From positions 92,736-156,735 of the forward strand of contig CAZVJB010000001.1 of assembly GCA_964627625.1 (NCBI GenBank): a stretch of 64,000 nt of DNA. The letters run 5' to 3'. The notes below the pieces were generated by a model, which saw nothing but the letters and a program-made list of their open reading frames with translations, searched no databases and was not told the DNA's origin. The position numbers and the translations under genes are program-made. Source of the stretch: an uncultured Halobacteriales archaeon. Lineage in GTDB: Archaea; Thermoplasmatota; E2; JACPAO01; JAHFTW01. Positions 3,294-59,689 of this stretch are shown here, piece after piece; positions within the stretch are counted from its first letter, which is position 1, and each line of letters opens with the position of its first letter.

Positions 3294-4016
3294 CTACCTG
3301 ACCTTGTAGTACGTCGCGTTCAATTTGCTTTCGTACTTTGGCCTGTGCCGCTGGAAGAACCAGTACGCCAGGAAGGCGCAGAGGGCTGTCTGGTGCGCGC
3401 TCAAGATGCCTAGCCAATTGATGAGGTCGCCCGGATCGGGCGTGACTTGACTTTCGAAGAGCCAATGGATGTGGCCGTGCAGGGGCTGGACTTCGTAAGC
3501 AAAAATGATGTCCGCGATTCCTACGACTGACATCCACCAAATGAAGGCCAGCCCTAAGACTCCCATGGAGACGTTGAGGGGCGATTCGATGGGTCGGCGT
3601 GCTTTGCCTTTGCCGATGAAGGGCACGACCATGAGGGCCACGAAGGCGACGTTGACGAGGATGGTGCCGAGGAAGACGGTGTTGATGAGCGGGTCTGGCA
3701 GGAAGGGGATGCCGGGGTTTGGGATGGCCCATTTGGCGAGGAAAATTGGGCCAAGCGACCATAACAAGTACCAGTCCGGTTTGACGTATTTTGGCGGTTG
3801 TGTCATGTCGTACGCGGGGTGCAACGGCGGCGGCACGATGGAGATGAGGAGGAAGATGGCGGCGCAGAGGAATGCGATGATGGCGCCGTCACGGATGAGT
3901 TCGTCACCGAGGCTGGTGCCTTCGACGCCCTTCTGGCGCTTCGGCGGTCCGCGGGCCGCTTCCATGCGGGCCTTTGTGGTGACGTAGAGGTTTGTGAGCT
4001 CTCGCATGCGTCCCAT
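3294..4016 (-). CDS. cytochrome b C-terminal half / subunit IV-like (petD-type)
   Basis: KPDWYLLW (PEWY-type Qo-site motif), about 3 TM helices, directly downstream of the cytochrome b N-half. Confidence 0.8.
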   Translation of the reverse strand: MGRMRELTNLYVTTKARMEAARGPPKRQKGVEGTSLGDELIRDGAIIAFLCAAIFLLISIVPPPLHPAYDMTQPPKYVKPDWYLLWSLGPIFLAKWAIPNPGIPFLPDPLINTVFLGTILVNVAFVALMVVPFIGKGKARRPIESPLNVSMGVLGLAFIWWMSVVGIADIIFAYEVQPLHGHIHWLFESQVTPDPGDLINWLGILSAHQTALCAFLAYWFFQRHRPKYESKLNATYYKVR

Positions 4017-7037: not shown

Positions 7038-7301
7038 ATGGCAGAAACAGAGCGTCGGTCGAAGCCCCGGAAAATCGAGCCCAAGGAAGACGAGAGCAAG
7101 AACCCCAAGGGCCACGGCTTGGTCCTTCTGGGTTATTTCGTCGCCGCAATCGCCATTGTCATGCTCATGTTCGTGATTGCGACGTTCCTTGCCAAGCCGG
7201 ACTCGCTCGACACCACCACTCTCTACCTTGCCGGTGGGACGGCCGTCCTGGCCGGCATCCTGTTTACCGCCGGAAAATTGGCGGGCCGCAAGCAAGGATG
7301 A
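7038..7301 (+). CDS. small two-TM membrane protein
   Basis: Charged N-terminus followed by two hydrophobic helices. ATGA overlap with the following PqqD-like gene. Confidence 0.5.
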   Translation: MAETERRSKPRKIEPKEDESKNPKGHGLVLLGYFVAAIAIVMLMFVIATFLAKPDSLDTTTLYLAGGTAVLAGILFTAGKLAGRKQG

Positions 7302-7630
7302 CCTCAGACCGAATCCCCGACATCTCGCGGATGGTCCCGCGTCGGGCCGTTGTCGAATCAAGCGAGGAAGCAGGCCGCATTACGGTCTTGCAGCGGCGTA
7401 AAGGCGTGCTACGGCCTCGCATCCTGCGCCTTTTCGGCATCCCACCGTTTCTGAAGATTCACCTCGACCCCTTGGGCTCGGAGGTCTGGCGCCTTGTGGA
7501 TGGCGTGCGCAGTGTGGCCGACATCAAGATTGCCCTGGAGGCCAAGTTCCCCGACGAAACCCAGGTGGCTGCCCGCCTTGGTCACTTCTTCGGCCTTATG
7601 GTGTCCAAAGGGCTGGTCACGTTGGCCTAA
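7298..7630 (+). CDS. PqqD-family (RRE-type peptide chaperone-like) protein
   Basis: LDPLGSEVWRLVDGVRSVADIKIALEAKFP...VAARLGHFFGLMVSKGLV matches the PqqD pattern. Confidence 0.65.
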   Translation: MTSDRIPDISRMVPRRAVVESSEEAGRITVLQRRKGVLRPRILRLFGIPPFLKIHLDPLGSEVWRLVDGVRSVADIKIALEAKFPDETQVAARLGHFFGLMVSKGLVTLA

Positions 7631-19975: not shown

Positions 19976-20518
19976 ATGGCCCGCGTCCTTGGTGTTATCA
20001 CGCTCCTACTCATGATTCTGCTGGCCGGCTGCTCGGGCTCCAATCCGTCGGCGGGGGAAACGTCCGGGCCGGCAAATGGAACGGACGGTTCCGGATCCGC
20101 GGTCCCCGGCGGCAGCCAATCTGACAACCGCACGGGGCCGACCCCTGCACCTATCAGCATCGCCGAGGGCGCCGACATGACGCAGGCCGGATCGAAGGAC
20201 ATCACGTGGGACGCTGAGGCAGACTTCCAGACATTCACCGTGACGTTGACGCTCTCTGGCGTCGCGGATGCCCCGAACTATGAGGTCAACAATCTCGGCT
20301 ACTCTCTAATCGGTGGCGCCGACACCACGCTCTACGCCGAACAGACCAGCAGCGCCACGGGCGCCAACGTCGCCGTCGGAACGAGCGGCGCCGTCGTGCT
20401 GCAGTTCGACGCCGCGACTGCAACCCCCAAAGGCGACATGGCCGGCGCGTGGCGACTCCACCTCGATTGGCAGGCAAGCCCAGCGCACTACGACGTGCAC
20501 GTGGTCGTCCGCTACTAA
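19976..20518 (+). CDS. lipobox lipoprotein
   Basis: MARVLGVITLLLMILLAGCSG. Confidence 0.65.
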   Translation: MARVLGVITLLLMILLAGCSGSNPSAGETSGPANGTDGSGSAVPGGSQSDNRTGPTPAPISIAEGADMTQAGSKDITWDAEADFQTFTVTLTLSGVADAPNYEVNNLGYSLIGGADTTLYAEQTSSATGANVAVGTSGAVVLQFDAATATPKGDMAGAWRLHLDWQASPAHYDVHVVVRY

Positions 20519-20580
20519 CCTCTAACGGCCGACGCCCCGGCATCCGGAATCCCTTTGAGGGCCGTCCACCTCGCTCTGCC

Positions 20581-21723
20581 ATGGGAAAGGCAACCGCGGG
20601 CCCGTTTCTGGACGGCTACGACGCGAAGGACCTCACAATCGCGACTGCGGTGAGCCATTCGAGCCTGCAGATTTTTCACGGCGCCAAACTTGAGGGCTTC
20701 AAGACGATTGCAATCGCCGCAGGCGACCGCGATGTGCGCTACTACGACGCCTTCCCGAAAGCCAAACCAGACCGCATCCTGCAACTAAGGCGATACCACG
20801 ATCTCTTGGGGCTTGCCGAGGAGTTGCGCGAGGAAAATGTCGTCCTCATTCCGCACGGCAGCCTGGTCGAGTACCTCGGCCCCGAGAATTACATCAAAAT
20901 CGAGTTGCCCATCTACGGGAACCGGAACGTCCTGCATTGGGAATCGGACCGCGACAAGCAACGCGAATGGCTCGAAGCAGCCGGCGTCAAGATGCCGCGC
21001 AAGATTGCCGACCCAAAGGACATTGTTGAGCCCGTCATCGTGAAGTATCACGGCGCCAAGGGCGGCCGCGGATTCTTTATCGCAAAGTCCTACCACGACT
21101 TCAAGCGCCACATCCAGGAAAACGAGGCGTACACCATCCAGGAGTTCGTGCTAGGGACGCGCTACTACCTGCACTACTTTTTCTCGCCCATCGCCGAGGG
21201 CGGCTATCGTGTGGAATTGAGCGACTCAAAGGTACCGACGGCCGCTTTGCGGCCGCCGGTAAAGCGATCCACCGCTCGCCCTGCTCGCGGCGGCTCGCTC
21301 CAAATGCTTTCCATCGACCGACGCGACGAGTCCAACATCGACGAGATGAATCGACTAGGGTCGCTCAAGGACATGGATGAAATTGGCATCCCGCCGACGT
21401 TCGTCGTCACAGGCAACATCCCGATGGTCATCCGCGAATCACTCCTGCCCGAGGTTTTCCGGATGGGCGAGGCCGTCGTCCAGGAGGCGCACAAGCGCTT
21501 TGGCGGGCTGTGGGGACCTTTCTGCCTCGAAACCGTCGTGACAGACAAGTTGGAGTTCCGCGTCTTCGAGATTTCCGCGCGCATCGTCGCGGGGACTAAC
21601 CCCTTCATCGGTGGCAGTCCTTATTCCGAAATGATTGAACCCGGCCTCTCCACGGGCAGGCGCATCGCCAAGGAGATCAAGATGGCGGCGGCAACCGGAC
21701 GACTTCCCGAAATCCTCACTTAG
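20581..21723 (+). CDS. purP: PurP paralog (FAICAR synthetase family) with internal insertion
   Basis: SHSSLQIFHGAKLEGF, SIDRRDESNID, VIRESLL, GPFCLE and a GTNPF-type motif. Extra segment of about 30 aa at 21201-21300. Confidence 0.8.
   Translation: MGKATAGPFLDGYDAKDLTIATAVSHSSLQIFHGAKLEGFKTIAIAAGDRDVRYYDAFPKAKPDRILQLRRYHDLLGLAEELREENVVLIPHGSLVEYLGPENYIKIELPIYGNRNVLHWESDRDKQREWLEAAGVKMPRKIADPKDIVEPVIVKYHGAKGGRGFFIAKSYHDFKRHIQENEAYTIQEFVLGTRYYLHYFFSPIAEGGYRVELSDSKVPTAALRPPVKRSTARPARGGSLQMLSIDRRDESNIDEMNRLGSLKDMDEIGIPPTFVVTGNIPMVIRESLLPEVFRMGEAVVQEAHKRFGGLWGPFCLETVVTDKLEFRVFEISARIVAGTNPFIGGSPYSEMIEPGLSTGRRIAKEIKMAAATGRLPEILT
21234..21260. repeat. 12-bp inverted repeat with 3-nt loop inside the purP2 insertion
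   Basis: accgacggccgc-ttt-gcggccgccggt (one mismatch). Confidence 0.8.
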
Positions 21724-21780: not shown

Positions 21781-21843
21781 CGGCCGCAGATGACGCAGAT
21801 TGCACAGATTTACCCGAAGGGAATCTGCGAAATCTGCGGCTGC
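21781..21843. repeat. palindromic element built from 9-bp CGCAGATNN units (both ends adjacent)
   Basis: Left arm ccgcagatg-acgcagatt-gcacagatt. Right arm gaatctgcga-aatctgcgg. 21783-21801 pairs with 21822-21840 (17 of 19). The 22 nt at 21822-21843 are identical to 55605-55626. Confidence 0.85.
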
Positions 21844-21911: not shown

Positions 21912-23057
21912 TCAGGCCGTCACATCTATTTCGCCATCCATGCCGGCATGCAGCAGGCACTTCATGTGGTAGATTCCAATCGTCGTGAGGGTGACGCCGA
22001 TGGGGAAGTGGTAGGTGTTGCCCGCCGTGATCGTCCCCGAGCTGTAGGAGGGCGAAATGTTGGCCCCGGCCGCGTCCGTGATGTGGAATTCGTGGCCGGC
22101 CGAATCCTTGTTCGTGATGTCGAAAACCAACGGGTCATTGACCTTGACTTCCAACGGACCGGCAATAGTCGATCCCGGAGTGAACGAATTCACGCCGCCG
22201 GCACCCGGCGCCGCAGCCGCCGCTCCGTTGTTGATATCGACATGCTGGACCGTCGCGGTCTTCTGCTGGAAAATCGGCGATGCGGCCGTCCCACAGGGGC
22301 TGCTGAGGAAAATCTTGTAGTTGTACGTCTGACCTGCCGTAAGGCCGCTCAGGATGGCAGTCTTGGCTCCGGTGCCCAACTCTTCGGGGGCGGTCGCACC
22401 GAGGGCAGCGGTGAGGCCGTACTCTACATGCGATTTAGCGTCGACCGGGCCGGCAACCGTCCATTGCACGGTGAAGCGGGTGTCGATGATGCTGCTTGCC
22501 GGCACCGAGACGCCCGTTGCGCCAAGAGCCGGGCCCGCCGTGGTCGTGAAGGGAATCGGACTCGTGCGCGCCGTGACCCCAGCCACACTGGCTGCGATGC
22601 GTACCTTGTAGCTGTTGCATGAGCTCAAGCCGGAAATCGTCGTGGACTGCGGGCCGAGGCCGGGTTGCGCGGGGCCTTGCAGGGTTAGGTTCGCTTGCGA
22701 CGCGAAAGCATACTCGGCCTGGCTGGTCACCGTGTCGCCGCCGGCTGTGACCTCCCAGACGACGACCGCGGAATTGCTGCCCGGCGTTACCGTGACGTTG
22801 CTGATGTCCGGCGTCGGGCCCGGCGTCGCCGTCTCGCCCGAGGATGTCGCCGTCTTTGTGGTCGTCGTTGTCACGGTCGTTACGGTCCCTGAAATCGTGG
22901 TCGTGCTGTAAAGCGTGATGATGTCGTTGGTCGTCGGAGCCGAAGAAGAAGTGGATGTGCTTGAGGACGGACTGGGCTCCTCTTCGCCGCCAGAACATCC
23001 GGCGAGGGCGGTTCCAGCGATGACCAGGAGTGCCAACAGGGGAGTGCGCATTTGCAT
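21912..23057 (-). CDS. lipoprotein with Ser/Thr linker, two FN3-like domains and C-terminal cupredoxin (halocyanin/plastocyanin-like)
   Basis: LLALLVIAGTALAGCSG lipobox. Copper-ligand pattern GHEFH ... YHMKCLLHAGMDG. Confidence 0.75.
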   Translation of the reverse strand: MQMRTPLLALLVIAGTALAGCSGGEEEPSPSSSTSTSSSAPTTNDIITLYSTTTISGTVTTVTTTTTKTATSSGETATPGPTPDISNVTVTPGSNSAVVVWEVTAGGDTVTSQAEYAFASQANLTLQGPAQPGLGPQSTTISGLSSCNSYKVRIAASVAGVTARTSPIPFTTTAGPALGATGVSVPASSIIDTRFTVQWTVAGPVDAKSHVEYGLTAALGATAPEELGTGAKTAILSGLTAGQTYNYKIFLSSPCGTAASPIFQQKTATVQHVDINNGAAAAAPGAGGVNSFTPGSTIAGPLEVKVNDPLVFDITNKDSAGHEFHITDAAGANISPSYSSGTITAGNTYHFPIGVTLTTIGIYHMKCLLHAGMDGEIDVTA

Positions 23058-23140
23058 GGGGTGAACGTGGACTTTCTCCTTCATGAACCTGTTGGAAACG
23101 ACGGGCCGAAGGATGAATGGGTTCGAGTGCGTCGGAAGCC

Positions 23141-23563
23141 CTACCAGCCCAGTAGAAGCCAGCAGCCCATCAAGGCGAAACCCGAAAGCGTGCATGCGCA
23201 TGCGGCAATCCAAGCAATTCCGTACGCCCTGCTTAAGCCACGCATCGCCCAAAGGCGGCCAACCATGTAGCCCGCGATGGCCGTGCCGCCAGTCAGGGCA
23301 CTAAAAGCGACCGGATGCGGCGTCCACTTGCGCGCCATCAGGTATACGATGAATGCGAACCCGAATGCCGTGTACGCGAAGACCAAGGGGTTCACCCATT
23401 GCAAGACCAGCACGCGGCGGGCCCCCGACGGCGTCGTTGCCTGCGGTGCCTCCTGGGCAGGCCGGTTGGGATCGAACTTACTGAAAGGCAACGTCGATTG
23501 CGACGCGGCCCGGGGCAAAAACTTGCCTGCCGCATCGTTGATAGCGCCGACTGCAGTCGGCAC
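23141..23563 (-). CDS. membrane protein, hypothetical
   Basis: 3-4 hydrophobic helices. Start uncertain. Confidence 0.5.
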   Translation of the reverse strand: MPTAVGAINDAAGKFLPRAASQSTLPFSKFDPNRPAQEAPQATTPSGARRVLVLQWVNPLVFAYTAFGFAFIVYLMARKWTPHPVAFSALTGGTAIAGYMVGRLWAMRGLSRAYGIAWIAACACTLSGFALMGCWLLLGW

Positions 23564-52882: not shown

Positions 52883-53716
52883 GTGCGAGTTCTTGTCTGC
52901 AGCCGCGCGGATACCGCGAGCGTCAACCTGCGTGACCGCATCCTAGAACTCGGCGACTGGGAGCGCACGAACCGGACGTTTCGCGGCCACGAGGTCTGGT
53001 CACAAAGTGAGGCCATCATGGTCGAGGTCGAGGGCCCCAGCATCCACGACGAGGCGCTCGACGGCGACCTCAAAGCGTTAGGCCTCCCACTACGCGACGT
53101 CTGGTTTCTGTCCAAGCACCGGGCGGAATCAGGCCAGCCGAGTTTCACCGTGCATCCAATCGGCAACCACGGCGAAGCGCGCTTCGGCGGCAAGCCGCAG
53201 AGGCCAAGCCCGGCAGCGGCACGCGACATGGGGGCCTTGCTGCGACGACTGCGTTTCCACCGCGACGCCGCAGGATTGCCGCACCAGGTGACGTACGAAG
53301 CCACGCACCATGGGCCGTTCATGTCGATCCCGACCTTGTTTGTTGAGATTGGCTCCGATGAGTTATGGTACGCCGACAAGTCCGGCGCGCAGGTGGTTGC
53401 GCGTGCCGTACAAGAAGTTCTACGAGGCGAAGGGCGTTCGGCGGGACCTGTTCTAGTGGGCGTCGGCGGCGGCCATTATGCTCCTCGGCAGACGGATATC
53501 GCGGTGTCAGGGAAAGCGGATTTTGGTCATTTGATTCCGGCGCACGCGGTCGCGCTGGCGGACGGACCCGCAGTCCTGCAACGAGCGGTCGATGCCACTG
53601 AAGGCTGCGCTGGGGTTCATGTCCACAAGAAAGGCTTGAAGGGTCCAGAGCGGCAGCGCGTGATGGCCTGGTGCGAAGAAATCGGAATCAAGGTTTGGGA
53701 TGGGGCGTCGGACTGA
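52883..53716 (+). CDS. dtdA: D-aminoacyl-tRNA deacylase, archaeal type
   Basis: YEATHHGP...FVEIGS ... GVGGGHYAPRQT ... FGHLIP. Confidence 0.85.
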   Translation: MRVLVCSRADTASVNLRDRILELGDWERTNRTFRGHEVWSQSEAIMVEVEGPSIHDEALDGDLKALGLPLRDVWFLSKHRAESGQPSFTVHPIGNHGEARFGGKPQRPSPAAARDMGALLRRLRFHRDAAGLPHQVTYEATHHGPFMSIPTLFVEIGSDELWYADKSGAQVVARAVQEVLRGEGRSAGPVLVGVGGGHYAPRQTDIAVSGKADFGHLIPAHAVALADGPAVLQRAVDATEGCAGVHVHKKGLKGPERQRVMAWCEEIGIKVWDGASD

Positions 53717-53891
53717 CGGCGCCGGCCCAGCCGCAGAATTCGCCGATTCGACAAACAACGTCTCTGCGATTCCTGCGGCCGCCTCGCCGCATAGGCCGAA
53801 CGTGCGCGCCTTGGCCTGTCCGAGCCGGGTTATCCGAGATCCTCGCCATGACCGCAAGGGATAAGGCATGGATATACCGATATGGATAACC

Positions 53892-54131
53892 ATGGGTTCA
53901 ATCCGCCTGCAACGCAAGGTCGTAAGGTGGGGCCACGCCTACGGCATCCGTGTGACGAAGGCCGAGATGGGGCGACTGGGACTCCGCGAGAACGACACCG
54001 CAACCGTGGACGTCCGGGCGGAACCGCAACCCGTCGACCTCGGGCACCTCACGCTGCTGCGGTTGGGCCGCAACGCCGCCGAAAACCACGACGACATCAT
54101 CGGGGCAGGACTCGACGATGCCCGTCGTTGA
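53892..54131 (+). CDS. vapB: AbrB/MazE-fold antitoxin VapB
   Basis: MGSIRLQRKVVRWGHAYGIRVTKAEMGRLGLRENDTATVDV. Overlaps vapC by 14 nt. Track start 53868 is an alternative. Confidence 0.7.
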   Translation: MGSIRLQRKVVRWGHAYGIRVTKAEMGRLGLRENDTATVDVRAEPQPVDLGHLTLLRLGRNAAENHDDIIGAGLDDARR

Positions 54132-54519
54132 CACCTCTTTCCTGGTCGCCCTGTTCAACGTCGAGGACGCGCACCACGCCAAGGCGACCAAGCAAGCCGC
54201 GGCAGCGGCAACCCTGATCGTACCGTCCCCGGTGCTGGTCGAGTTCCTGCAGGTCGTATACTACCAGTCACGGCGCGCGCATGGCGAGGCGGATGCGGCG
54301 GGATTGAGTCGCCGCGCCTGCCGGCAACTCGTTGCAATCGCTAGCGTACGGGTCGAGGTGGATTACGGCCACGACAAGGCCCAGGCCATCTTCCTGGCAA
54401 ACAAGAAGCTGACATTCGTTGATGCCGCCGGCTTGCATCTTGCCCGCGCAATGCGGGACGAACTGTACTCGTTTGACAAAGAGCAGTTGGCGGTCTGGAA
54501 GGCGCCAGCTTTTCCGTGA
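54118..54519 (+). CDS. vapC: PIN-domain toxin VapC
   Basis: MPVVDTSFLVALFNVEDAHH ... LTFVDAAGLHLA. Confidence 0.85.
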   Translation: MPVVDTSFLVALFNVEDAHHAKATKQAAAAATLIVPSPVLVEFLQVVYYQSRRAHGEADAAGLSRRACRQLVAIASVRVEVDYGHDKAQAIFLANKKLTFVDAAGLHLARAMRDELYSFDKEQLAVWKAPAFP

Positions 54520-54534
54520 AAGTGCAGCCTAGCA

Positions 54535-54560
54535 GGAGCCGCAGATTTCGCCGATGACGC
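54535..54560. repeat. left-end 9-mer array (CGCAGAT orientation)
   Basis: ggagccgcagatttcgccgatgacgc. 54537-54551 is the exact reverse complement of 55610-55624. Confidence 0.85.
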
Positions 54561-54597
54561 CGGTGCGTGTTCTTGGCGATTCGGCTTACAATCTATG

Positions 54598-55458
54598 CTA
54601 CCTGCCGGGCGGCGGTTTTCGAACCACGGCGCGAAGGCGCGCGAGCATTCGCTCCGCAGACTCCCGCGTGAGCGGGCCTTGCAGGACCGGGTTGGCCAGG
54701 TCGTGGAGGACGGCCTTCACCAATGGGCCTTGGGCGGGCATGAAGCCGATATCGTCGCGTCCCTCAATCGCATTCGCCCATTCCTCCAATTCGGCGGCCG
54801 TGCGCAGGCCATTGAGGAAGTTGTGCAATTGCGCGCCGAGGTGGTCCTTGGAGAATGTGACCATTTCCGTTTCCGAGTCCCAGCCAAACTGAGCGAGATC
54901 CTTCGCAACGCGCGCCGTTCGAGATGGTTCTTCGACCAATTGTACCAGGAGCCGCCACCTGGCGTTTGTCGGGTCGCGCTCGTTCCAAACCGTCCATTCG
55001 CCGGCCTTGTGTTCGAGAAACGGCCGGTCATGTCCGCCCTCTAAGGCCAGATGAACGGGCTTCCCGGTCGCCTTGCCGACCAGCCGGCCAAAGTCAAGCA
55101 AGCATTGGAAAGCCAGGGGCGAGTCCAGCTCGCGCGCGTCGGCGTCGAAATCCAATTCCGCGTCAGTGAAGAAGTAGGAGTTGAGGTGAAGCGGCCCAGC
55201 CGCTATTTGCATCGTCATGCCCGCTTCGGCTCGTCGCGCAAACAGAGCGTTCATCCCGGGCGGCGGCACATCCGTCCCCGTGTCGTCCGTGAATCGCGCG
55301 GGGTAGGACGCCACAACCCGGTCCACAACGAGTTGCCAATCTTGCGCCGAGGTCCCGCGCACCACGACGTCCACGAGCGGGCCGCCCCCGTCCACGCTTT
55401 CGCGGAAGATGGGTTCGCATTCCGCCCAGAACGCATCGGCTTCGGTCAACGGGGTCAC
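54598..55458 (-). CDS. hypothetical protein (cargo of the repeat-bounded segment)
   Basis: 287-codon ORF from GTG 55458 with good third-position G/C bias. No motif recognised. Confidence 0.55.
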   Translation of the reverse strand: MTPLTEADAFWAECEPIFRESVDGGGPLVDVVVRGTSAQDWQLVVDRVVASYPARFTDDTGTDVPPPGMNALFARRAEAGMTMQIAAGPLHLNSYFFTDAELDFDADARELDSPLAFQCLLDFGRLVGKATGKPVHLALEGGHDRPFLEHKAGEWTVWNERDPTNARWRLLVQLVEEPSRTARVAKDLAQFGWDSETEMVTFSKDHLGAQLHNFLNGLRTAAELEEWANAIEGRDDIGFMPAQGPLVKAVLHDLANPVLQGPLTRESAERMLARLRAVVRKPPPGR

Positions 55459-55595
55459 TAGGCGGCTTGTACATAGGGACTTTTGGGGCCGGGAAAAAGA
55501 AGGAAAAGTAGGGCCTCGTAGGCCCCTCAGGCTCAAGGTCGCGAAGCAACATGGCCAAAATCGGGCTTCTCTCGCGTCGCACCAAAAGGGTTGGG

Positions 55596-55626
55596 TATCT
55601 GCGCAATCTGCGAAATCTGCGGCTGC
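55596..55626. repeat. right-end array: three tandem 9-mers
   Basis: tatctgcgc-aatctgcga-aatctgcgg-ctgc. Confidence 0.9.
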
Positions 55627-55707
55627 CCTCGTCGGCGTGGCGGTTCCACGTAATCGCACCTGTCCCAAGTCGGTTTCATCCGTTGCCGTAGACTCCCCGC
55701 GTCGACG

Positions 55708-56643
55708 ATGGGCACCTCCACCCTGAAGGCGAACACCATCAAGGTCGCCTTGGCCCTCGCTGCAATCTACATCATTTGGGGAACGACGTACTACGGCATC
55801 AAGGTGGCAATCGAGACCATTCCGCCACTTCTCATGGCGGGTTTTCGCTGGCTCATTCCTGGCCTTTTCCTGTTCGGGTGGACGATTGCGCGCGGAAACG
55901 GCATGCCAACGGCCGCCTCCTGGCGCCGTGCCGCCATCCTTGGCTTCTTCCTCATGGCAATCGGCAACGGCGCCGTCACCTTCGCCGAAAAGCGCATGCC
56001 GTCAGGGGTCGCAGCTCTCATCGTGGCGACGGTTCCGCTCTGGGCCTCGCTGCTTGAGTGGACGATGGAGGGCAAGCGGCCAGGGCCTATCGTCGGCGCT
56101 GGGCTGGGGCTTGGCTTGGCCGGTGTTGCAATTCTGTCGCAGGAAGGCGGCGGATGGGTTGGCGGTGTGGACCTGCGCTATCTTGCCTTGCCGTTTTTCG
56201 GTTCGCTTGGTTGGGCCTACGGTTCGCTTCTGTCAAGGCGTGGCGTCAAACCACAATGGCCGTGGCAGGACCTGGCATTGCAGATGCTCCTTGGCGGTTT
56301 GTACTTCGTCCTGGGCGGCGCAGCCATCGGTGAATTTCGCGGCTGGAACCCGCTTGAGGTCTCGACCGGCTCGTTATGGGCTGTGCTCTACCTGAGTGTC
56401 GTGGGTTCCGTCGTCGCCATGGGTTGTTACTTGTGGCTACTTCGAGCTACGAGTCCCGCCGTCGCAACAACGTATGCGTTTGTGAATCCCGCCGTCGCCG
56501 TCGCCGTCGGGGTGTGGCTTGCAGACGAGGTCGTCACGGTCCTGACCCTCGCGGCAACAGGACTCATCGTTGCGGCCGTTGCGCTCATCATCTGGTCAAA
56601 GGCGCGACGGCAATCCGTTGTGGACGCCGCCCCGGAAGCGTAG
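55708..56643 (+). CDS. EamA/DMT-family transporter
   Basis: Ten TM segments. AAIYIIWGTTYYGIKVAIETIPPLLMAGFRW is a typical EamA N-terminus. Confidence 0.85.
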   Translation: MGTSTLKANTIKVALALAAIYIIWGTTYYGIKVAIETIPPLLMAGFRWLIPGLFLFGWTIARGNGMPTAASWRRAAILGFFLMAIGNGAVTFAEKRMPSGVAALIVATVPLWASLLEWTMEGKRPGPIVGAGLGLGLAGVAILSQEGGGWVGGVDLRYLALPFFGSLGWAYGSLLSRRGVKPQWPWQDLALQMLLGGLYFVLGGAAIGEFRGWNPLEVSTGSLWAVLYLSVVGSVVAMGCYLWLLRATSPAVATTYAFVNPAVAVAVGVWLADEVVTVLTLAATGLIVAAVALIIWSKARRQSVVDAAPEA

Positions 56644-56731
56644 GTGGATTGCTGGTGACGGCAAGAATGGCGCCCAGCGCGACTCCGCGCAACCCTGGAC
56701 TGGCATCGCCCGTCGCGAGGGCGGGGCCTTG

Positions 56732-56992
56732 ATGCGCACGCTGCCTGGTTCGACGGCCCTGCTGTTGACATTCGCCTGCGCGGCCGCCCCACCGGGAGCG
56801 TCGGCCGCGTCGCCCCTGCTGCCGCGTGTCGTTGCCGACCCCGAGCACGGAACCGTGTGCGTCATCGAGACGCCGGGTTCCGACTTCGGTGTCGCGGCCT
56901 GCGTGCAGGCCTACGACCCGGATTGCCTGGTCCTGGCGGCCTACGCCACGATCGCCGGTCCGTACTATTTCTGCCTGGTGCCGCGGCCGTAG
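56732..56992 (+). CDS. small secreted Cys-rich protein
   Basis: Signal MRTLPGSTALLLTFACAAAPPGASA. Four Cys in the mature part. Confidence 0.45.
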   Translation: MRTLPGSTALLLTFACAAAPPGASAASPLLPRVVADPEHGTVCVIETPGSDFGVAACVQAYDPDCLVLAAYATIAGPYYFCLVPRP

Positions 56993-57019
56993 AAGATTCA
57001 CCACCCCCTTGGATACCGT

Positions 57020-57040
57020 TTTGTATACAAAGCGTATACA
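57020..57040 (+). promoter_or_regulatory. AT-rich TATA-like box embedded in the inverted repeat TGTATAC-N5-GTATACA
   Basis: tgtatac (57022-57028), aaagc, gtataca (57034-57040). Ends 7 nt before GTG 57048. Confidence 0.5.
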
Positions 57041-57047
57041 TCCTGTT

Positions 57048-57269
57048 GTGGACAAAATCCAGTTCCGCGAGGACCCCGCCCTCCTGGACTTCGTGCAGGG
57101 CCGCGGCCTGAACCCTAACGAGGTTGCAAAGCGCGCGTTCGAGGCGGAAGTGCAGCGCATGAAGAGTGACGACTGGTTTGCCAAGATGCGCGAGTTGCAG
57201 AAACACATGAAGCCCATCTCCAAAGAGGACCTCGTTCGGGCCGTGCGCGAGTCGAGGGACGAACATTGA
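57048..57269 (+). CDS. putative antitoxin of the third vapBC pair
   Basis: 74-codon ORF ending in a TTGA overlap with the PIN gene start. GTG start inferred. Confidence 0.55.
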   Translation: MDKIQFREDPALLDFVQGRGLNPNEVAKRAFEAEVQRMKSDDWFAKMRELQKHMKPISKEDLVRAVRESRDEH

Positions 57270-57712
57270 AGTGGGTCGTCGACGCCAGCGCCTTGCTTTG
57301 GACAGGCCAACTCGAGGGCGAGGCGGCCATGACCCTGCAGCGAGCCCGCCGGATTGGACAGGTGGTCGCACCCATGATCCTGGCTTCGGAATGCGGCAAT
57401 GTGGTCCATCGCAAGCATCCCCAAGAGTATGGCCCGAGCGTCGAGTCCCGTGCAGCCGCGCTGGAGCTCATGCTTCGGCAGGCTTCGTTGTTGCCAGCTG
57501 GAGAGGAGATGCGAAGCCTCGCCGGTGCGCTTGTTGCGAAGCACGGGCTTTCTTTCTACGATGCCGAGTACTTGGCTGCGGCCATCTCGCAAGAGGCGAC
57601 TCTGATCACGGAAGACGGCCGACTGCGAACGGTGGCAAGCCACGTCATAGGCTCGACGCGCGCTCTCGACTGGGACGCGGCCCGTCGCAGCCTGCCATCG
57701 ACGGCCGCCTGA
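57266..57712 (+). CDS. vapC: PIN-domain toxin VapC
   Basis: MKWVVDASALL ... SFYDAEYLAAAISQEATLITEDGRL. Confidence 0.8.
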   Translation: MKWVVDASALLWTGQLEGEAAMTLQRARRIGQVVAPMILASECGNVVHRKHPQEYGPSVESRAAALELMLRQASLLPAGEEMRSLAGALVAKHGLSFYDAEYLAAAISQEATLITEDGRLRTVASHVIGSTRALDWDAARRSLPSTAA

Positions 57713-57775
57713 TTCCACAGGAAGTCGCGCACCAGGAATCACCATTGTTATCCCCCCGTCACCACTCCTGGAATC

Positions 57776-59689
57776 GTGCCTGAGACCCTGGTCCCCGATA
57801 CGTCCGTCCTCGTGGATGGTCGCATCACGGAACTCATCGAATCGGGAGAATTTGCCAAAGCGAAGGTGCTCGTTCCGCTTGCCGCCCTTGCCGAACTCGA
57901 AGCCCAAGCCAATCGCGGCCTCGAAACCGGCGTCGCCGGCATGGACGAACTTGCCAATCTGCAAAAGCTCGCCGCCGCTGGACAGATTTCCATCGAGTTT
58001 GTGGGTGAGCGACCGCATCGCGACGAAATTGGCCAAGCCCGAAGTGGCGCAATCGATGCCAAAATCCGTGACACGGCCGTCGCGCACAAGGCTCTGTTCG
58101 TCACGAGCGACCGCATCCAAGCACACGCCGCCGCGGCGCAGGGCATCCGCCACCACTACATCCGCCCGGTCGTCAAGGACACGCCTGATTTGACGGGCCT
58201 CAAGCTCTGGGGTTTCTTCGATGCACAAACGATGAGTGTGCACCTCAAGTCAGATTGCAAACCCATGGTCAAGCGCGGCCAACCCGGCCAAGTGCGCTAC
58301 GAGCCGTTCTCGGCCGCCACACGGGATTCGGGGCACGCAGAACTGCGCGCCATGGCCCGCGAATGCATCGAATTCGCGAAACGTGATTATAACAGTTTTA
58401 TCGAGATGGAAAAGCACGGCTGCACGGTAATCCAACTTGGGCCGCTTCGGATCACCATCGCGCAGCCGCCGTTTTCCGACGGCCTCGAGATCACTGCAGT
58501 GCGCCCAATCACGAAGAAGCACATCAGCGACTACAAGCTAGAACGAGAGTTGATGGATCGCATCGAAGGCAAGAGCCGCGGCGTCTTCGTGGCAGGCCCG
58601 CCGGGTTCCGGAAAATCCACGTTTGCGGCCGCCGTCGCCGAGCACTTGCACGGAATGGCTCGCGTCGTCAAAACGATGGAGCAGCCACGCGACCTGCAAG
58701 TGCCCAAGGAAGTCACGCAATACGGCGCTCTTGACCGCGACATGAAGTGGACCGGCGACGTGATCCTTCTCGTGCGCCCGGACAACGTCATCTACGACGA
58801 GGTCCGCACGACGGAGGACTTCCGCGTCTTTGCCGACATGCGCCTTGCCGGCGTCGGGCTGATCGGTGTGACGCACGCCAACCGCGCAATCGATGCCGTG
58901 CAACGGCTCATCGGCCGCGTTGAACTCGGCATGATTCCGCAAGTGATTGACACGGTCCTGTTCGTGGACGCCGGGGCCATCACGCAGGTCCTCGAACTCG
59001 AATTCACGGTGAAGGTACCCGCCGGCATGCAGGATGCTGACCTTGCCCGTCCCGTCGTCGTCGTGAAGGACGTCATGAACGGCGGCCGCCCGGTCTACGA
59101 GTTATACACGTACGGCGAACAAGTCGTCGTTATGCCGCTTGAACAGGTCGGCCAGGCCAGCGATCCGGCAAGCGCACTCGCGGAGAAACAACTAGCGGGA
59201 ATGCTGCGCAAGTACGTGCAGGGCCCGATGGAAATCAAAGTACGCGGCAACCGTGCGACAATTATGGTAAGCGACTCCGAAGTCCCGGCCCTTATCGGCA
59301 AGGGCGGACGTACCGTTCAGATGCTGGAAAACAAACTCGGAATCGGACTGCAGATTCAAGCACTCGCGGACAAGCCGCGCCGCCGCGACCGGGACGACGA
59401 CCGTTTCCAAGGCGGCGCTGACGATGAGGGCGGCGGCCGGGGCGGGGGCAACCGCCGCGGCGCCGACACAGTCCCGCGCGTCCGCCTCAAGCGCACGAGC
59501 ACGAATGTATTCCTCCTCATTAACGGCGGGCAACCCGGAATGTACCGCGTCGAGGTAGAGGGAGCCATCGTCGGTGAGGCCACCGCATCGAAGGACGGCA
59601 AGTTGCGGTTCAAGACGGAATCGCCCGAGGGTCAGGCCCTGCTGATGGCGGACAAGCGGGGGCTTGAGATTTCGGTCGTGCCTTCGTAG
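57776..59689 (+). CDS. PIN-domain / P-loop ATPase / KH-domain protein (COG1855 type)
   Basis: LVPDTSVLVDGRI (PIN), GPPGSGKST (Walker A), and PALIGKGGRTVQMLE (KH GXXG). Confidence 0.85.
   Translation: MPETLVPDTSVLVDGRITELIESGEFAKAKVLVPLAALAELEAQANRGLETGVAGMDELANLQKLAAAGQISIEFVGERPHRDEIGQARSGAIDAKIRDTAVAHKALFVTSDRIQAHAAAAQGIRHHYIRPVVKDTPDLTGLKLWGFFDAQTMSVHLKSDCKPMVKRGQPGQVRYEPFSAATRDSGHAELRAMARECIEFAKRDYNSFIEMEKHGCTVIQLGPLRITIAQPPFSDGLEITAVRPITKKHISDYKLERELMDRIEGKSRGVFVAGPPGSGKSTFAAAVAEHLHGMARVVKTMEQPRDLQVPKEVTQYGALDRDMKWTGDVILLVRPDNVIYDEVRTTEDFRVFADMRLAGVGLIGVTHANRAIDAVQRLIGRVELGMIPQVIDTVLFVDAGAITQVLELEFTVKVPAGMQDADLARPVVVVKDVMNGGRPVYELYTYGEQVVVMPLEQVGQASDPASALAEKQLAGMLRKYVQGPMEIKVRGNRATIMVSDSEVPALIGKGGRTVQMLENKLGIGLQIQALADKPRRRDRDDDRFQGGADDEGGGRGGGNRRGADTVPRVRLKRTSTNVFLLINGGQPGMYRVEVEGAIVGEATASKDGKLRFKTESPEGQALLMADKRGLEISVVPS

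Follow-up and report, generated by a model that had tools for sequence, protein, structure and literature searches.

Repeat arrays in a 64-kb segment of archaeal DNA belong to a dispersed family of small palindromic elements linked to GxxExxY genes

The CGCAGATNN arrays found in the 64-kb stretch of archaeal DNA analyzed here (the window) belong to a family of small palindromic elements that is present in many bacterial phyla and in some archaea. The full-length form of the element, about 0.45–0.6 kb long, encloses a single GxxExxY gene of about 125–145 amino acids (TIGR04256/PF13366). The window, from a probably Thermoplasmatota-like archaeon, has gene-less copies only: the hairpin at 21.8 kb is intact, those at 53.73 and 54.54 kb are decayed, and at 55.6 kb there is a pristine solo arm. 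On balance, we lean towards the view that these are members of a widespread set of GxxExxY-linked palindromic elements, that the GxxExxY nuclease moves or maintains the element, and that the 287-aa gene lying between two of the arrays, together with the nearby vapBC pair, is only a neighbour.

Four copies or remnants of one repeat family are recognizable in the window, with arms of two to four (usually three) tandem 9-bp units that carry the core C[G/A]CAGAT and, where two arms face each other, read GCCGCAGATT…AATCTGCGGC. The left-then-right inverted order of arms is seen at 21783–21840, 53730–53779 and 54538…55624. The word CGCAGATT occurs nine times in the window against 2.55 expected, a count reached in none of 100 shuffles, and with an ungapped weight matrix trained on 103 arms from other genomes the arms in the window reach 42.0, 37.0, 31.3, 27.9 and 23.7 bits, compared with a null maximum of 17.8 bits. 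On the strength of the shuffles, the matrix scores and the cross-genome count of a 19-mer given below, a chance origin of the arrays is rejected. The original prediction had listed three copies, all of which are real; a fourth, degenerate one at 53730–53779 had been overlooked. As described there, the right end of the proposed unit (55596–55626) reads TATCTGCGC AATCTGCGA AATCTGCGG followed by CTGC, the left end (54535–54560) reads GGAGCCGCAGATTTCGCCGATGACGC, and 54537–54551 is the exact reverse complement of 55610–55624; gap-free extension of this inverted match covers 24 nt at 88%. The identity claimed between 21822–21843 and 55605–55626 holds as well, and the extended match comprises 26 nt at 96%.

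The complete gene-less element, 58 nt in length (21783–21840), lies between a convergent PurP-like gene (20449–21723, plus strand) and an ORF on the minus strand (21912–23252). Its left arm, GCCGCAGAT GA CGCAGATT G CACAGATT, is followed by a loop of about 12 nt and the right arm, AATCTGCGA AATCTGCGGC; the arms score 37.0 and 27.9 bits, the whole is a strict GCC…GGC element, and it folds strongly (-46.9 kcal/mol, z = -4.2, none of 200 shuffles as stable). The degenerate short element at 53730–53779 (GCCGCAGAA TTCGCCGATT … CTCTGCGA TTCCTGCGGC; 23.7 bits) is situated between DtdA and vapB, beginning 13 nt past the DtdA stop codon (53714–53716), and its fold has z = -3.0 on the plus strand and -2.5 on the minus strand. 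The left-type arm at 54538–54564 (plus strand; GC CGCAGATTT CGCCGATGA CGCCGGT; 31.3 bits), 19 nt past the vapC stop, consists of three units that decay inward (CGCAGAT, CGCCGAT, CGCCGGT). A possible degenerate right-type partner at 54576–54598 (plus strand; GGCGATTCGGCTTAC AATCTATGC), which extends into the 287-aa gene's stop codon, goes undetected by the ungapped weight matrix; the region 54520–54610 folds on itself on the minus strand (-39.8 kcal/mol, z = -3.8, none of 200 shuffles as stable). If this partner is real, 54538–54598 is a separate decayed hairpin element. The right-type arm at 55597–55624 (minus strand; ATCTGCGC AATCTGCGA AATCTGCGGCT; 42.0 bits), the best preserved in the window, has no partner arm within 140 nt and forms no local hairpin (z about 0); the distance from it to the EamA start codon downstream is 84 nt, and a second sample contains the identical sequence. 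Of the two ends of the proposed unit, the left may belong to a degenerate hairpin of its own, and the right may be a solo arm. A window-wide scan with Rfam 15 at the gathering score gave no match and no rRNA, and the 21.8-kb hairpin region, searched at a permissive E-value, gave chance-level microRNA-like matches only. Intrinsic (Rho-independent) terminators were also considered and rejected, as the stems come without a U-tract: there is no run of T after the hairpins at 21840, 53779 or 54598, and a terminator scan does not call the arrays.

Three of the four copies reside in an accessory block of about 1.9 kb (53717–55656) that is absent from two related contigs, where only 58 and 69 nt separate the DtdA stop from the EamA start; because DtdA directly adjoins EamA in both, the block is an insertion. 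It consists, in order, of a hairpin, vapBC, a hairpin or arm, the 287-aa gene and an arm, so arranged that the left-type arm of the 53730 copy is leftmost and the right-type arm at 55597–55624 is rightmost, 32 nt before a conserved EamA-upstream block (CACCTGTSCCAAGTCGGWTTCATCC, 55657–55683). The comparison of the vapC-to-EamA interval proposed with the original prediction accordingly finds the segment with the arrays missing in two related genomes. The empty sites concern the whole 1.9-kb block, not single elements, and in the relatives the EamA orthologs have no array but retain a conserved upstream block of their own. Within the insertion, a vapBC-type toxin–antitoxin pair (53868–54519, plus strand; gene calls of 79 and 133 amino acids), absent from the two relatives, separates the first repeat copy from the second; it consists of a small antitoxin-like ORF and a VapC (54118–54519) whose PIN domain is recognized at E = 2e-9. 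VapC adjoins the left arm, in keeping with the vapBC module noted earlier beside the interval. An extra toxin–antitoxin block at 56643–57776 also entered the neighbourhood, without any arms. The genes within about 5 kb of the block (DUF4332, DtdA, vapBC, EamA, PIN proteins and an ATPase) include no integrase, and searches of the proteins in and around the window found no Y1 transposase. A tRNA scan of the window found none, and hence there is no tRNA-linked integration site. The flanks of the block share only GCCC, probably by chance, and in base composition the 1.09-kb segment does not stand out. Strain-level polymorphism was sought by exact matching of the EamA and VapC proteins, which yielded nothing beyond the same sequence, and a metagenome scan with the neighbouring PIN-ATPase returned one uninformative locus.

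The ORF of 286/287 amino acids at 54598–55458 (minus strand; gene calls give 286) is separated from the arms by 139 nt on its upstream side and by 35 nt on its downstream side. In it an N-terminal alpha/beta domain (residues ~10–155) is fused to a C-terminal helical domain (~163–285). Both domains are also common on their own, as small proteins; the C-terminal one has more than 1000 stand-alone homologs. The protein has no match in Pfam, NCBIfam, PADLOC or PHROG, its N-terminal domain matches no PDB sequence, and its single-sequence AlphaFold2 model is poor (pLDDT 55). Comparison with GxxExxY yields an hhalign probability of 0.1%, and the protein, its N-terminal domain included, is unrelated to that family. 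The sole full-length homolog (42% identity) lies in a locus free of arrays, and homologs are absent from the 118 repeat-bearing loci described below. The absence of a transposase-like protein remarked upon earlier is borne out by profile searches, which find no recognizable transposase or nuclease in this ORF, and it was rejected as the enzyme of the element (no profile match, an arm-less homolog, absence from 118 loci, an N-terminal domain unrelated to GxxExxY and without a PDB match). Because the arrays are gene-less copies and the full-length element carries one tiny nuclease gene, GxxExxY, the 287-aa gene is probably a bystander and not a transposase. The earlier reading of the arrays as element ends survives in that there is a dispersed family with full-length and miniature forms, but the 1.09-kb unit around the 287-aa gene is probably not its full version; the recurrent gene of the family is the GxxExxY nuclease, and the window has none.

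A wider motif search, suggested with the original prediction, shows that the motif recurs in other genomes: the 19-mer AATCTGCGAAATCTGCGGC was found in at least 118 loci and at least 132 sites in species-representative genomes, a sequence space of 596 Gb in which chance would yield about 4. The loci span more than 10 bacterial phyla and Thermoplasmatota, with matches in Acidobacteriota, Bacteroidota, Verrucomicrobiota, Planctomycetota, Gemmatimonadota, Chloroflexota, Bacillota, Gammaproteobacteria, Nitrospirota and others; most of the source genomes are metagenome bins, and among the first 80 matches listed several genomes have 3–7 loci each. The motif is also present in complete genomes, among them those of Solimonas marina C16B3, Salinisphaera sp. 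T5B8, Flavobacterium sp. Root186 and Gemmatirosa kalamazoonensis. An end of the element usually comprises three 9-bp units, each consisting of the 7-bp core plus 2 bp of spacer; GCCGCAGATT is the outermost unit, and the whole element reads GCCGCAGATT…AATCTGCGGC. Arrays of at least three units are present in 90 of the 118 loci and a left-then-right pair within 700 nt in 69, and neighbouring arrays less than 150 nt apart are arranged left-then-right in 66 cases versus right-then-left in 8. Most copies are gene-less, hairpin-like and 60–200 nt long, with 3–200 nt between the arms and loop sequences that differ even within one genome. Array length ranges from 2 to 8 units across loci, solo arms are common, arms can be unequal (8 units versus 2 in locus L040), and copies cluster in some loci (L008, L040, L056, L108, L123, L125). 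The 7-bp cores are nearly invariant and the spacer positions pair in only 23–39 of 79 elements, a pattern of sequence conservation that suggests sites rather than pure pairing. The 20 short elements that could be classified by gene orientation lie between tandem (15) or convergent (5) genes, never between divergent ones; copies are found mostly at gene 3' ends, and their neighbours are unrelated across the 118 loci. Among 83 arm pairs there is neither an IS-sized left-right pair nor any recurrent cargo besides GxxExxY. Spread by phages was rejected: a 16-base motif scan of viral contigs gave at least 120 stretches, the matches listed including six three-unit arrays, one left-right pair and no GxxExxY, and a scan of viral contigs with the GxxExxY profile found nothing. 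Plasmids gave no match to the hairpin DNA, and only 6 plasmid records encode GxxExxY.

The link to GxxExxY emerges from both directions. Starting from the arrays, interiors of 380–525 nt with a long ORF encode TIGR04256 GxxExxY in four of four cases (E = 1e-37 to 1e-44), and the 776 kb examined contain no GxxExxY gene besides these four. Starting from the gene, six distinct GxxExxY loci picked by protein homology alone (a small sample, 6 + 6 loci) have a three-unit array 30–120 nt upstream in every case and array units 2–50 nt downstream in five. Divergent GxxExxY genes (33–50% identity) carry divergent units (CGCGGAT, CACAGAGGA/CCTCTGTG, CACAGAGA, CACGGATTCG), and arms are identical at 19 of 19 positions between elements whose proteins share only 40–61% identity. 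The GC content of the GxxExxY gene follows that of the host: 0.32–0.33 in hosts of 0.39, and 0.52–0.61 in hosts of 0.59–0.65. The genes are co-directional inside operons, as in fabD-X-fabG, serC-X-serA and radA-X. One gene-less copy (L123) keeps the GxxExxY ribosome-binding and start context and, judged by these retained letters, is a deletion derivative. There is no GxxExxY gene or remnant in the 64-kb window, so its copies are gene-less forms or carry other DNA.

The AlphaFold2 model of GxxExxY (pLDDT 89) finds its best PDB matches in Cas4 SSO0001, RecE and the nuclease domains of AdnAB/AddAB, with tRNA-splicing endonucleases as distant matches (ranks 20, 35 and 37; E = 0.04–0.09). Three residues, E30, E81 and K83, show no variation and D70 hardly any; together they form the motif E…D…ExK, and the model identifies the protein as a predicted minimal RecB/Cas4-like PD-(D/E)XK nuclease. 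The GxxExxY/PDDEXK_3 family comprises more than 5000 clusters at 90% identity (one word-limited search) and, to our knowledge, has no known function and no solved structure. The literature searchable in full text contains only incidental mentions of GxxExxY, PF13366, TIGR04256 or PDDEXK, with the family named in just three papers, the exact repeat strings appear in no paper searchable in full text, and no prior description of the association between GxxExxY and the arrays was found in the searchable literature.

The arms probably serve the GxxExxY nuclease as cis sites. By the mechanism that we infer, the repeated 7-bp cores would be putative binding or cleavage sites for GxxExxY, with several protomers at each end, and the nuclease would move or maintain the element without making target duplications. 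Gene-less copies would be derivatives by internal deletion that rely on a GxxExxY encoded at another place in the genome and acting in trans; vapBC and the 287-aa gene would be accessory neighbours and not part of the machinery of the element. No target-site duplication had been seen at the outset, and no consistent one is present at the window flanks or across 52 elements (offsets 0–6, k = 3–6), where at most 3 of 52 have direct flank matches, which do not clearly or consistently exceed shuffled pairings; no defined insertion target is seen among these elements either. We know of no transposon based on a PD-(D/E)XK nuclease only, and GxxExxY could instead be a cargo gene or a gene of the homing or addiction type. 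A broader proposition, which we put forward tentatively and with less than even confidence, is that the arrays and GxxExxY constitute a new minimal class of selfish elements of Bacteria and Archaea, in which a nuclease of ~130 amino acids recognizes iterated 7-bp sites, moves or locally propagates the enclosed DNA without target duplication and leaves behind hundreds of gene-less palindromes, occasionally with other cargo such as the block of vapBC and the 287-aa gene.

It is possible, if doubtful, that the window instead contains a cargo-swapped or composite element, with 54538–55624 or the whole of 53730–55624 being mobile via its outer arms and another gene having replaced or joined GxxExxY. 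The arms of this unit have the canonical orientation and lie 139 nt upstream and 35 nt downstream of the gene, to be compared with 30–120 and 2–50 nt in GxxExxY elements; the block missing in the relatives is bounded by a left arm, 13 nt past the DtdA stop, and a right arm. A single unit would also occupy a tandem intergenic site, as other members do, whereas a solo arm would lie in a divergent promoter region, where none of the 20 members is found, which favours the composite. Yet the only full-length homolog of the 287-aa protein is without arms, GxxExxY is the sole recurrent cargo among 83 arm pairs, the left arm can plausibly be paired with a partner close by, family copies cluster anyway in the loci named above, and the toxin–antitoxin block at 56643–57776 arrived with no arms at all. 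An element acting at the RNA level appears unlikely. Here the arms would pair in the transcript as a stem around or after the cargo, either removed by RNase III in the manner of an intervening sequence or serving as a 3' stabilizer or terminator, and conservation would reflect an RNA-binding or processing factor; this would be compatible with mobility at the DNA level. It would account for the strong hairpins and for the location of copies after genes (15 in tandem, 5 in convergent and 0 in divergent arrangement), it agrees with the distant fold similarity to tRNA-splicing endonucleases, and a self-excising or insulating stem would limit the harm done by co-directional GxxExxY genes in operons. 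It fits poorly with the conservation across phyla of the stem sequence rather than mere pairing, with spacers that are often unpaired, with solo arms and unequal unit numbers (8 versus 2 in L040), and with window hairpins that lack a U-tract and match no Rfam family. The asymmetry between G·U and A·C is uninformative in this regard, since selecting loci with one perfect arm forces the mismatches into the other.

Hairpins that mark the junctions of acquired cassettes, on whose folded single strands a recombinase acts as on attC sites, would explain a repeat copy at every boundary (DtdA / hairpin / vapBC / hairpin / ORF / arm / EamA, 53.7–55.7 kb), and a toxin–antitoxin pair together with an ORFan is typical integron cassette content. 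We nevertheless hold this to be improbable: the hairpins contain no RYYYAAC/GTTRRRY core sites, there is no integrase within about 5 kb, the copies elsewhere are mostly single insertions between housekeeping genes, and the recurrent associated gene encodes a nuclease, not a recombinase. Least credible of all, and offered as an alternative in the original prediction, is a multi-site operator for a DNA-binding regulator of the host. Tandem direct and inverted short repeats do resemble iteron- or operator-type sites, and one copy lies 84 nt upstream of EamA, but the neighbours are unrelated across 118 loci, no fixed upstream distance is seen, the copies are mostly at 3' ends with 0 of 20 classifiable ones in a divergent promoter region, and the EamA orthologs of the relatives keep the conserved upstream block with no array.

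Elements linked to GxxExxY, the reading that we prefer, would have several implications. The arrays provide the GxxExxY family with a testable DNA substrate, the motif being the same letter for letter across more than 10 phyla and Archaea. If the nuclease acts on the arms, the elements would be mobile or self-maintaining units of a new type and of very small size, and a compact sequence-specific nuclease might be at hand. The family explains common unannotated intergenic palindromes in soil and sediment genomes, and its arrays provide a marker of gene flow between the domains. For annotation, a position between two such repeats is no reason to call a gene a transposase.

Among known systems, REP/REPIN sequences with their RAYT are dispersed short palindromes that form hairpins as inverted doublets (PMC3116915). 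They have in common with the GxxExxY elements many intergenic gene-less copies, one small repeat-flanked enzyme gene and no target-site duplication. The enzyme of the former is a Y1 HUH transposase and that of the latter a predicted PD-(D/E)XK (RecB/Cas4-like) nuclease; REPs are single imperfect palindromes with a GTAG-type head and are lineage-specific, whereas the GxxExxY arms are arrays of 9-bp units whose sequence is common to phyla and domains. Membership in the REP/REPIN-RAYT group was rejected, the flanked gene being GxxExxY and not Y1. The intervening sequences of 23S rRNA with an S23p ORF in Coxiella and Leptospira (PMC4990558) are likewise inserts bounded by stem-forming inverted repeats, and share with the GxxExxY elements the nature of a sporadic selfish insert of ~0.4–0.7 kb with one small ORF of unknown role. 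They sit in rRNA (helix 25 or 45) and encode the four-helix-bundle protein S23p (PF05635), in contrast to elements outside rRNA with a PD-(D/E)XK nuclease, and this assignment was set aside as well, the copies lying between protein-coding genes. Integron attC sites resemble the hairpins at 53.7–55.7 kb in being imperfect palindromes, foldable as single strands, at the boundaries of accessory cassettes. GxxExxY elements, unlike attC sites, are mostly solitary and conserved in sequence, not only in structure, and with no R''/R' cores and no IntI nearby an attC array was rejected. In PD-(D/E)XK homing endonucleases, free-standing or intron-borne (e.g. I-Ssp6803I), a tiny nuclease is the only gene of a selfish insert, and a very small PD-(D/E)XK nuclease in or between conserved genes is a feature common to both systems; homing endonuclease genes have no bounding inverted repeat arrays and no mass of gene-less palindromic copies. 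MITEs and IS-type transposons with terminal inverted repeats share with the GxxExxY elements those repeats, full-length and miniature versions and multiple copies per genome; absence from the orthologous site in relatives is seen here for the whole 1.9-kb block bounded by arms. The GxxExxY elements differ in having no target-site duplication and no known transposase, no autonomous partner with a recognized transposase and matching ends being present among the 83 pairs, and their miniatures, unlike those of a classical MITE burst, have heterogeneous interiors. Their ends also differ from MITE and IS-type ends in consisting of iterated sub-repeats, which recall the subterminal repeats of Ac/Ds or En/Spm in eukaryotes, or Tn7 and Mu with their multiple end sites.

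The repeats in the window form the termini of a pan-prokaryotic inverted-array element whose sole recurrent gene encodes a GxxExxY nuclease, and the window copies are gene-less copies and remnants of it. Each arm is built of tandem 9-bp units with the core C[G/A]CAGAT, left-type or right-type according to orientation. The original prediction placed three tandem 9-mers followed by CTGC at 55596–55626, and these are present, as are the exact reverse complementarity of 55610–55624 to 54537–54551 and the identity of 55605–55626 to 21822–21843, a match that extends to 26 nt at 96%. The longer inverted match also stood, except that its gap-free extent is 24 nt at 88% rather than 19 of 22. A chance origin was rejected, CGCAGATT occurring 9 times in the window against 2.55 expected, a count reached in 0 of 100 shuffles. 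The 21.8-kb copy forms a long hairpin (−46.9 kcal/mol, z = −4.2; none of 200 shuffles as stable). On a weight matrix trained on 103 arms from other genomes, five window arms exceed the null maximum of 17.8 bits: the solo (unpaired) right-type arm at 55595–55625 (minus strand, 42.0 bits), the left and right arms of the 21.8-kb hairpin (21781–21811, plus strand, 37.0 bits; 21812–21842, minus strand, 27.9 bits), the left-type arm after vapC (54536–54566, plus strand, 31.3 bits) and a new site at 53728–53758 (plus strand, 23.7 bits), part of a degenerate 50-nt hairpin (53730–53779) directly 3' of the DtdA stop codon. The segment 54520–54610 folds on itself using a decayed partner (minus strand z = −3.8); no local partner for the 55.6-kb arm was found in the window, and no GxxExxY gene or remnant lies within its 64 kb.

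The repeats are dispersed beyond the window. Exact matches to AATCTGCGAAATCTGCGGC were sought in 185,579 species-representative genomes and found at no fewer than 132 sites in at least 118 loci; about 4 sites would be expected by chance (596 Gb, both strands). Hosts among the matches listed include Acidobacteriota, Bacteroidota, Verrucomicrobiota, Planctomycetota, Gemmatimonadota, Chloroflexota, Bacillota, Gammaproteobacteria, Nitrospirota and others, with the cultured isolates Salinisphaera, Solimonas and Flavobacterium and one Thermoplasmatota archaeon (L029); single metagenome bins supply 3–7 each of the first 80 loci. Aligned matches consist of a left arm (consensus GCCGCAGATT-NCGCAGATT-NC[A/G]CAGATT), a variable interior and a right arm that is an inverted copy of the left. 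Among the matches listed, 90 of 118 loci carry an array of at least three units and 69 of 118 a left-then-right pair no more than 700 nt apart; in these loci, arrays range from 2 to 8 units, most commonly 3, and neighbours less than 150 nt apart are left-then-right in 66 cases versus right-then-left in 8. In the aligned elements the 7-bp cores hardly vary and the outer GC is kept, spacer positions pair in just 23–39 of 79 elements, and the palindrome tends to run on into the flanks (TTTA/GCC…GGC/TAAA). Direct target duplications, which the original prediction had also failed to see, were found at no boundary offset in elements from other genomes.

Variants of this anatomy were observed. Arm-bounded elements in L022, a Desulfuromonadaceae MAG (435–1278), and in locus L082 (2499–3732) lie head-to-tail with a 381-nt period and have interiors of about 300 nt without an ORF, a gene-less variant amplified in tandem. 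At 3348–3417 of locus L040 an eight-unit left-type array faces a two-unit right-type array, so that expansion in unit number can be one-sided.

Most of the 83 neighbouring left-right pairs in the loci listed are less than 150 nt apart and are therefore hairpin-like elements. Four long interiors, from Chitinophaga (L004), Acidobacteria (L028), Planctomycetaceae (L035) and Flavobacteriales (L036), each encode one protein of 130–145 aa, and all four match TIGR04256 'GxxExxY protein' (Pfam PF13366, PDDEXK_3; E = 1e-37 to 1e-44); the 776 kb of fetched loci contain no other GxxExxY gene. The original reading of a full and a miniature element is partly supported: the arrays are element ends, but the recurrent gene is GxxExxY, and the unit with the 287-aa gene was not supported as the full version. 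Since these four loci had been chosen through the motif, an independent sample was taken by protein search: one GxxExxY protein retrieved more than 5000 clusters, and the DNA of six members from long contigs was inspected. A three-unit C[G/A]CAGAT array lies 30–120 nt upstream of the start codon in all six, and ATCTG[C/T]G units lie 2–50 nt past the stop codon in five. Gene-less hairpins adjoin a gene-bearing copy in two loci (L123 and L125); the one in L123 (1300–1500), immediately upstream of the gene-bearing copy, retains the start context of the gene, 'tgagaggtNNNatg', after its left arm, which points to an origin by internal deletion.

Distant, plasmid-borne GxxExxY genes (33–50% identity; L135–L140) have different but analogous arms: CGCGGAT ×3 / ATCCGCG ×3 in Gemmatirosa, CACAGAGGA ×3 / CCTCTGTG ×3 in Bacteroides finegoldii, CACAGAGA-type units in Bernardetia and a single CACGGATTCG / CGAATCCGTG pair in Treponema, so that arm sequence co-varies with protein clade. 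These genes are co-directional with the housekeeping genes between which they lie (fabD-X-fabG, radA-X, ade-X), the elements being inserted inside housekeeping-gene operons. Within the CGCAGAT clade, arms are identical at 19 of 19 positions although the proteins are just 40–61% identical, and gene GC tracks that of the host (0.32–0.33 in hosts of 0.39; 0.52–0.61 in hosts of 0.59–0.65), which argues for elements that have long resided in each host under strong arm constraint, and against very recent transfer. In low-GC and high-GC hosts alike, gene GC is 3–11 points below the rest of the locus (L004, L028, L035, L036, L122–L131).

An AlphaFold2 model of GxxExxY from a 47-sequence alignment (pLDDT 89) has as its closest PDB matches Cas4 SSO0001 (E = 2e-4), RecE and the AdnAB and AddAB nuclease domains. 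E30 (within the GxxExxY motif), E81 and K83 are invariant in the alignment and D70 nearly so; together they make the predicted PD-(D/E)XK active site. No PDB chain matches by sequence, PADLOC gives no match and the PHROG match is marginal. A 2012 superfamily survey listed PDDEXK_3 as of unknown function, with multiple transfers between Bacteria and Archaea.

The window is probably archaeal: it also encodes a PurP-type DUF1246/DUF1297 protein, an archaeal-type DtdA (PF04414) and a PIN-ATPase-KH protein, and several EamA homologs are labelled Thermoplasmatota archaeon by their sources. At 22–759 there are seven tandem units of 96–111 nt (64–79% identity) that probably encode a repeat domain. The contigs of the two closest EamA homologs (75% and 69% identity) share the gene order DUF4332, DtdA, EamA, PIN-ATPase. 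Anchored on the conserved EamA-upstream block CACCTGTSCCAAGTCGGWTTCATCC (window 55657–55683), the comparison gives 58 and 69 nt from DtdA stop to EamA start in these relatives, with no arrays between, and the block around the window arms is therefore an insertion of about 1.9 kb. The segment proposed for comparison between vapC and EamA is absent from both relatives as part of this block. The insertion opens with a left-type arm 13 nt past the DtdA stop codon, closes with a right-type arm 32 nt before the conserved EamA-upstream block, and between these holds vapBC (VapC being, as predicted, a PIN-domain protein), a second arm or hairpin and the 287-aa gene. The comparison gives genuine presence/absence evidence that arm-bounded DNA entered at the DtdA–EamA site, in one or several events. 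A second extra block (56643–57776), with small ORFs and a PIN-domain gene (57266–57712) that are probably a second vapBC-like pair, is missing from the syntenic relative L261, in which 68 nt separate EamA from PIN-ATPase; the block is not bordered by CGCAGAT arms, so accessory genes also enter the neighbourhood without arms. Directly 3' of the PIN-ATPase gene, L261 has a zero-loop palindrome of variant 9-nt units (7268–7329; TCTCAGATG ACCCCGATG GACGAGATAC / GTATCTGGGG CATCTGCGT CATCTGGGA), which scores 13.8 and 8.2 bits on the CGCAGAT matrix, below the null, and so may be a diverged arm type. The first gene of L261 matches PKD_4 (weakly) and TSP_3.

The predicted gene between the arms (54598–55458, minus strand) is present, called at 286 rather than 287 aa; a hairpin resembling a terminator, GGGGCCTACGAGGCCCT with a T-rich tract after it (55510–55526, minus strand), lies between its start and the 55.6-kb arm. 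A full HMMER scan of its protein against 1.8 billion representatives gave 1472 matches, one of them full-length (P0002, 42% identity), and the P0002 locus has no arrays. The protein is a fusion of two domains, each mostly found as a separate small protein, and the homologs contain no Pfam domain in the matching part. The C-terminal helical domain of about 115 aa (GWDS…E.WANA.E.R.DI…LANP) is found on its own in more than 1000 homologs, and no Pfam model covers it in those scanned; the N-terminal domain of about 145 aa (…EIEFD.DPRE…) also has stand-alone homologs without a Pfam match; the two are uncharacterised domain families. The N-terminal domain is unrelated to GxxExxY (hhalign probability 0.1%).

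We propose that the iterated 7-bp cores are recognition sites of the GxxExxY nuclease, which would move or maintain the element, gene-less copies relying on nuclease given in trans. Site recognition is favoured over pure hairpin selection because sequence is conserved more strongly than pairing, spacers are often unpaired, the number of units varies and differs between arms, well-preserved solo arms occur and unit sequence co-varies with protein clade. The arms may instead act at the RNA level, like intervening-sequence stems, or be attC-like cassette junctions, the form in which the att-like site of the original prediction survives, although neither core sites nor an integrase were found, which weakens this reading; the other alternative of that prediction, an operator for a DNA-binding protein, was rejected. 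Against nuclease-driven mobility stand the absence of any single-element transposition event in the loci compared, the missing target duplication and the heterogeneous interiors of gene-less copies; to our knowledge, a transposon with a PD-(D/E)XK nuclease alone has no precedent, and the independently chosen GxxExxY sample behind the model is small. A further possibility is that the 1.09-kb or 1.9-kb unit is itself cargo-swapped or composite: the spacing of its parts fits the GxxExxY architecture, and on its own the solo arm would stand in a divergent region, a setting that holds 0 of 20 family members.

No Rfam family was found for the repeats, and the 8.3 million full texts searched contained neither the repeat strings nor a link of GxxExxY/PF13366 to flanking repeats, although those who curated the TIGR04256 model may be aware of them. 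There is a substantial chance that the inverted-array element is a new class. Among known systems, those most similar to it are REPIN/RAYT, miniature inverted-repeat elements together with the insertion sequences they derive from, and the intervening sequences of 23S rRNA that carry the S23p ORF (PMC4990558). Because it is likened to these yet departs from each in a defining feature, we rate the element as a small inverted-repeat selfish element with miniature derivatives.
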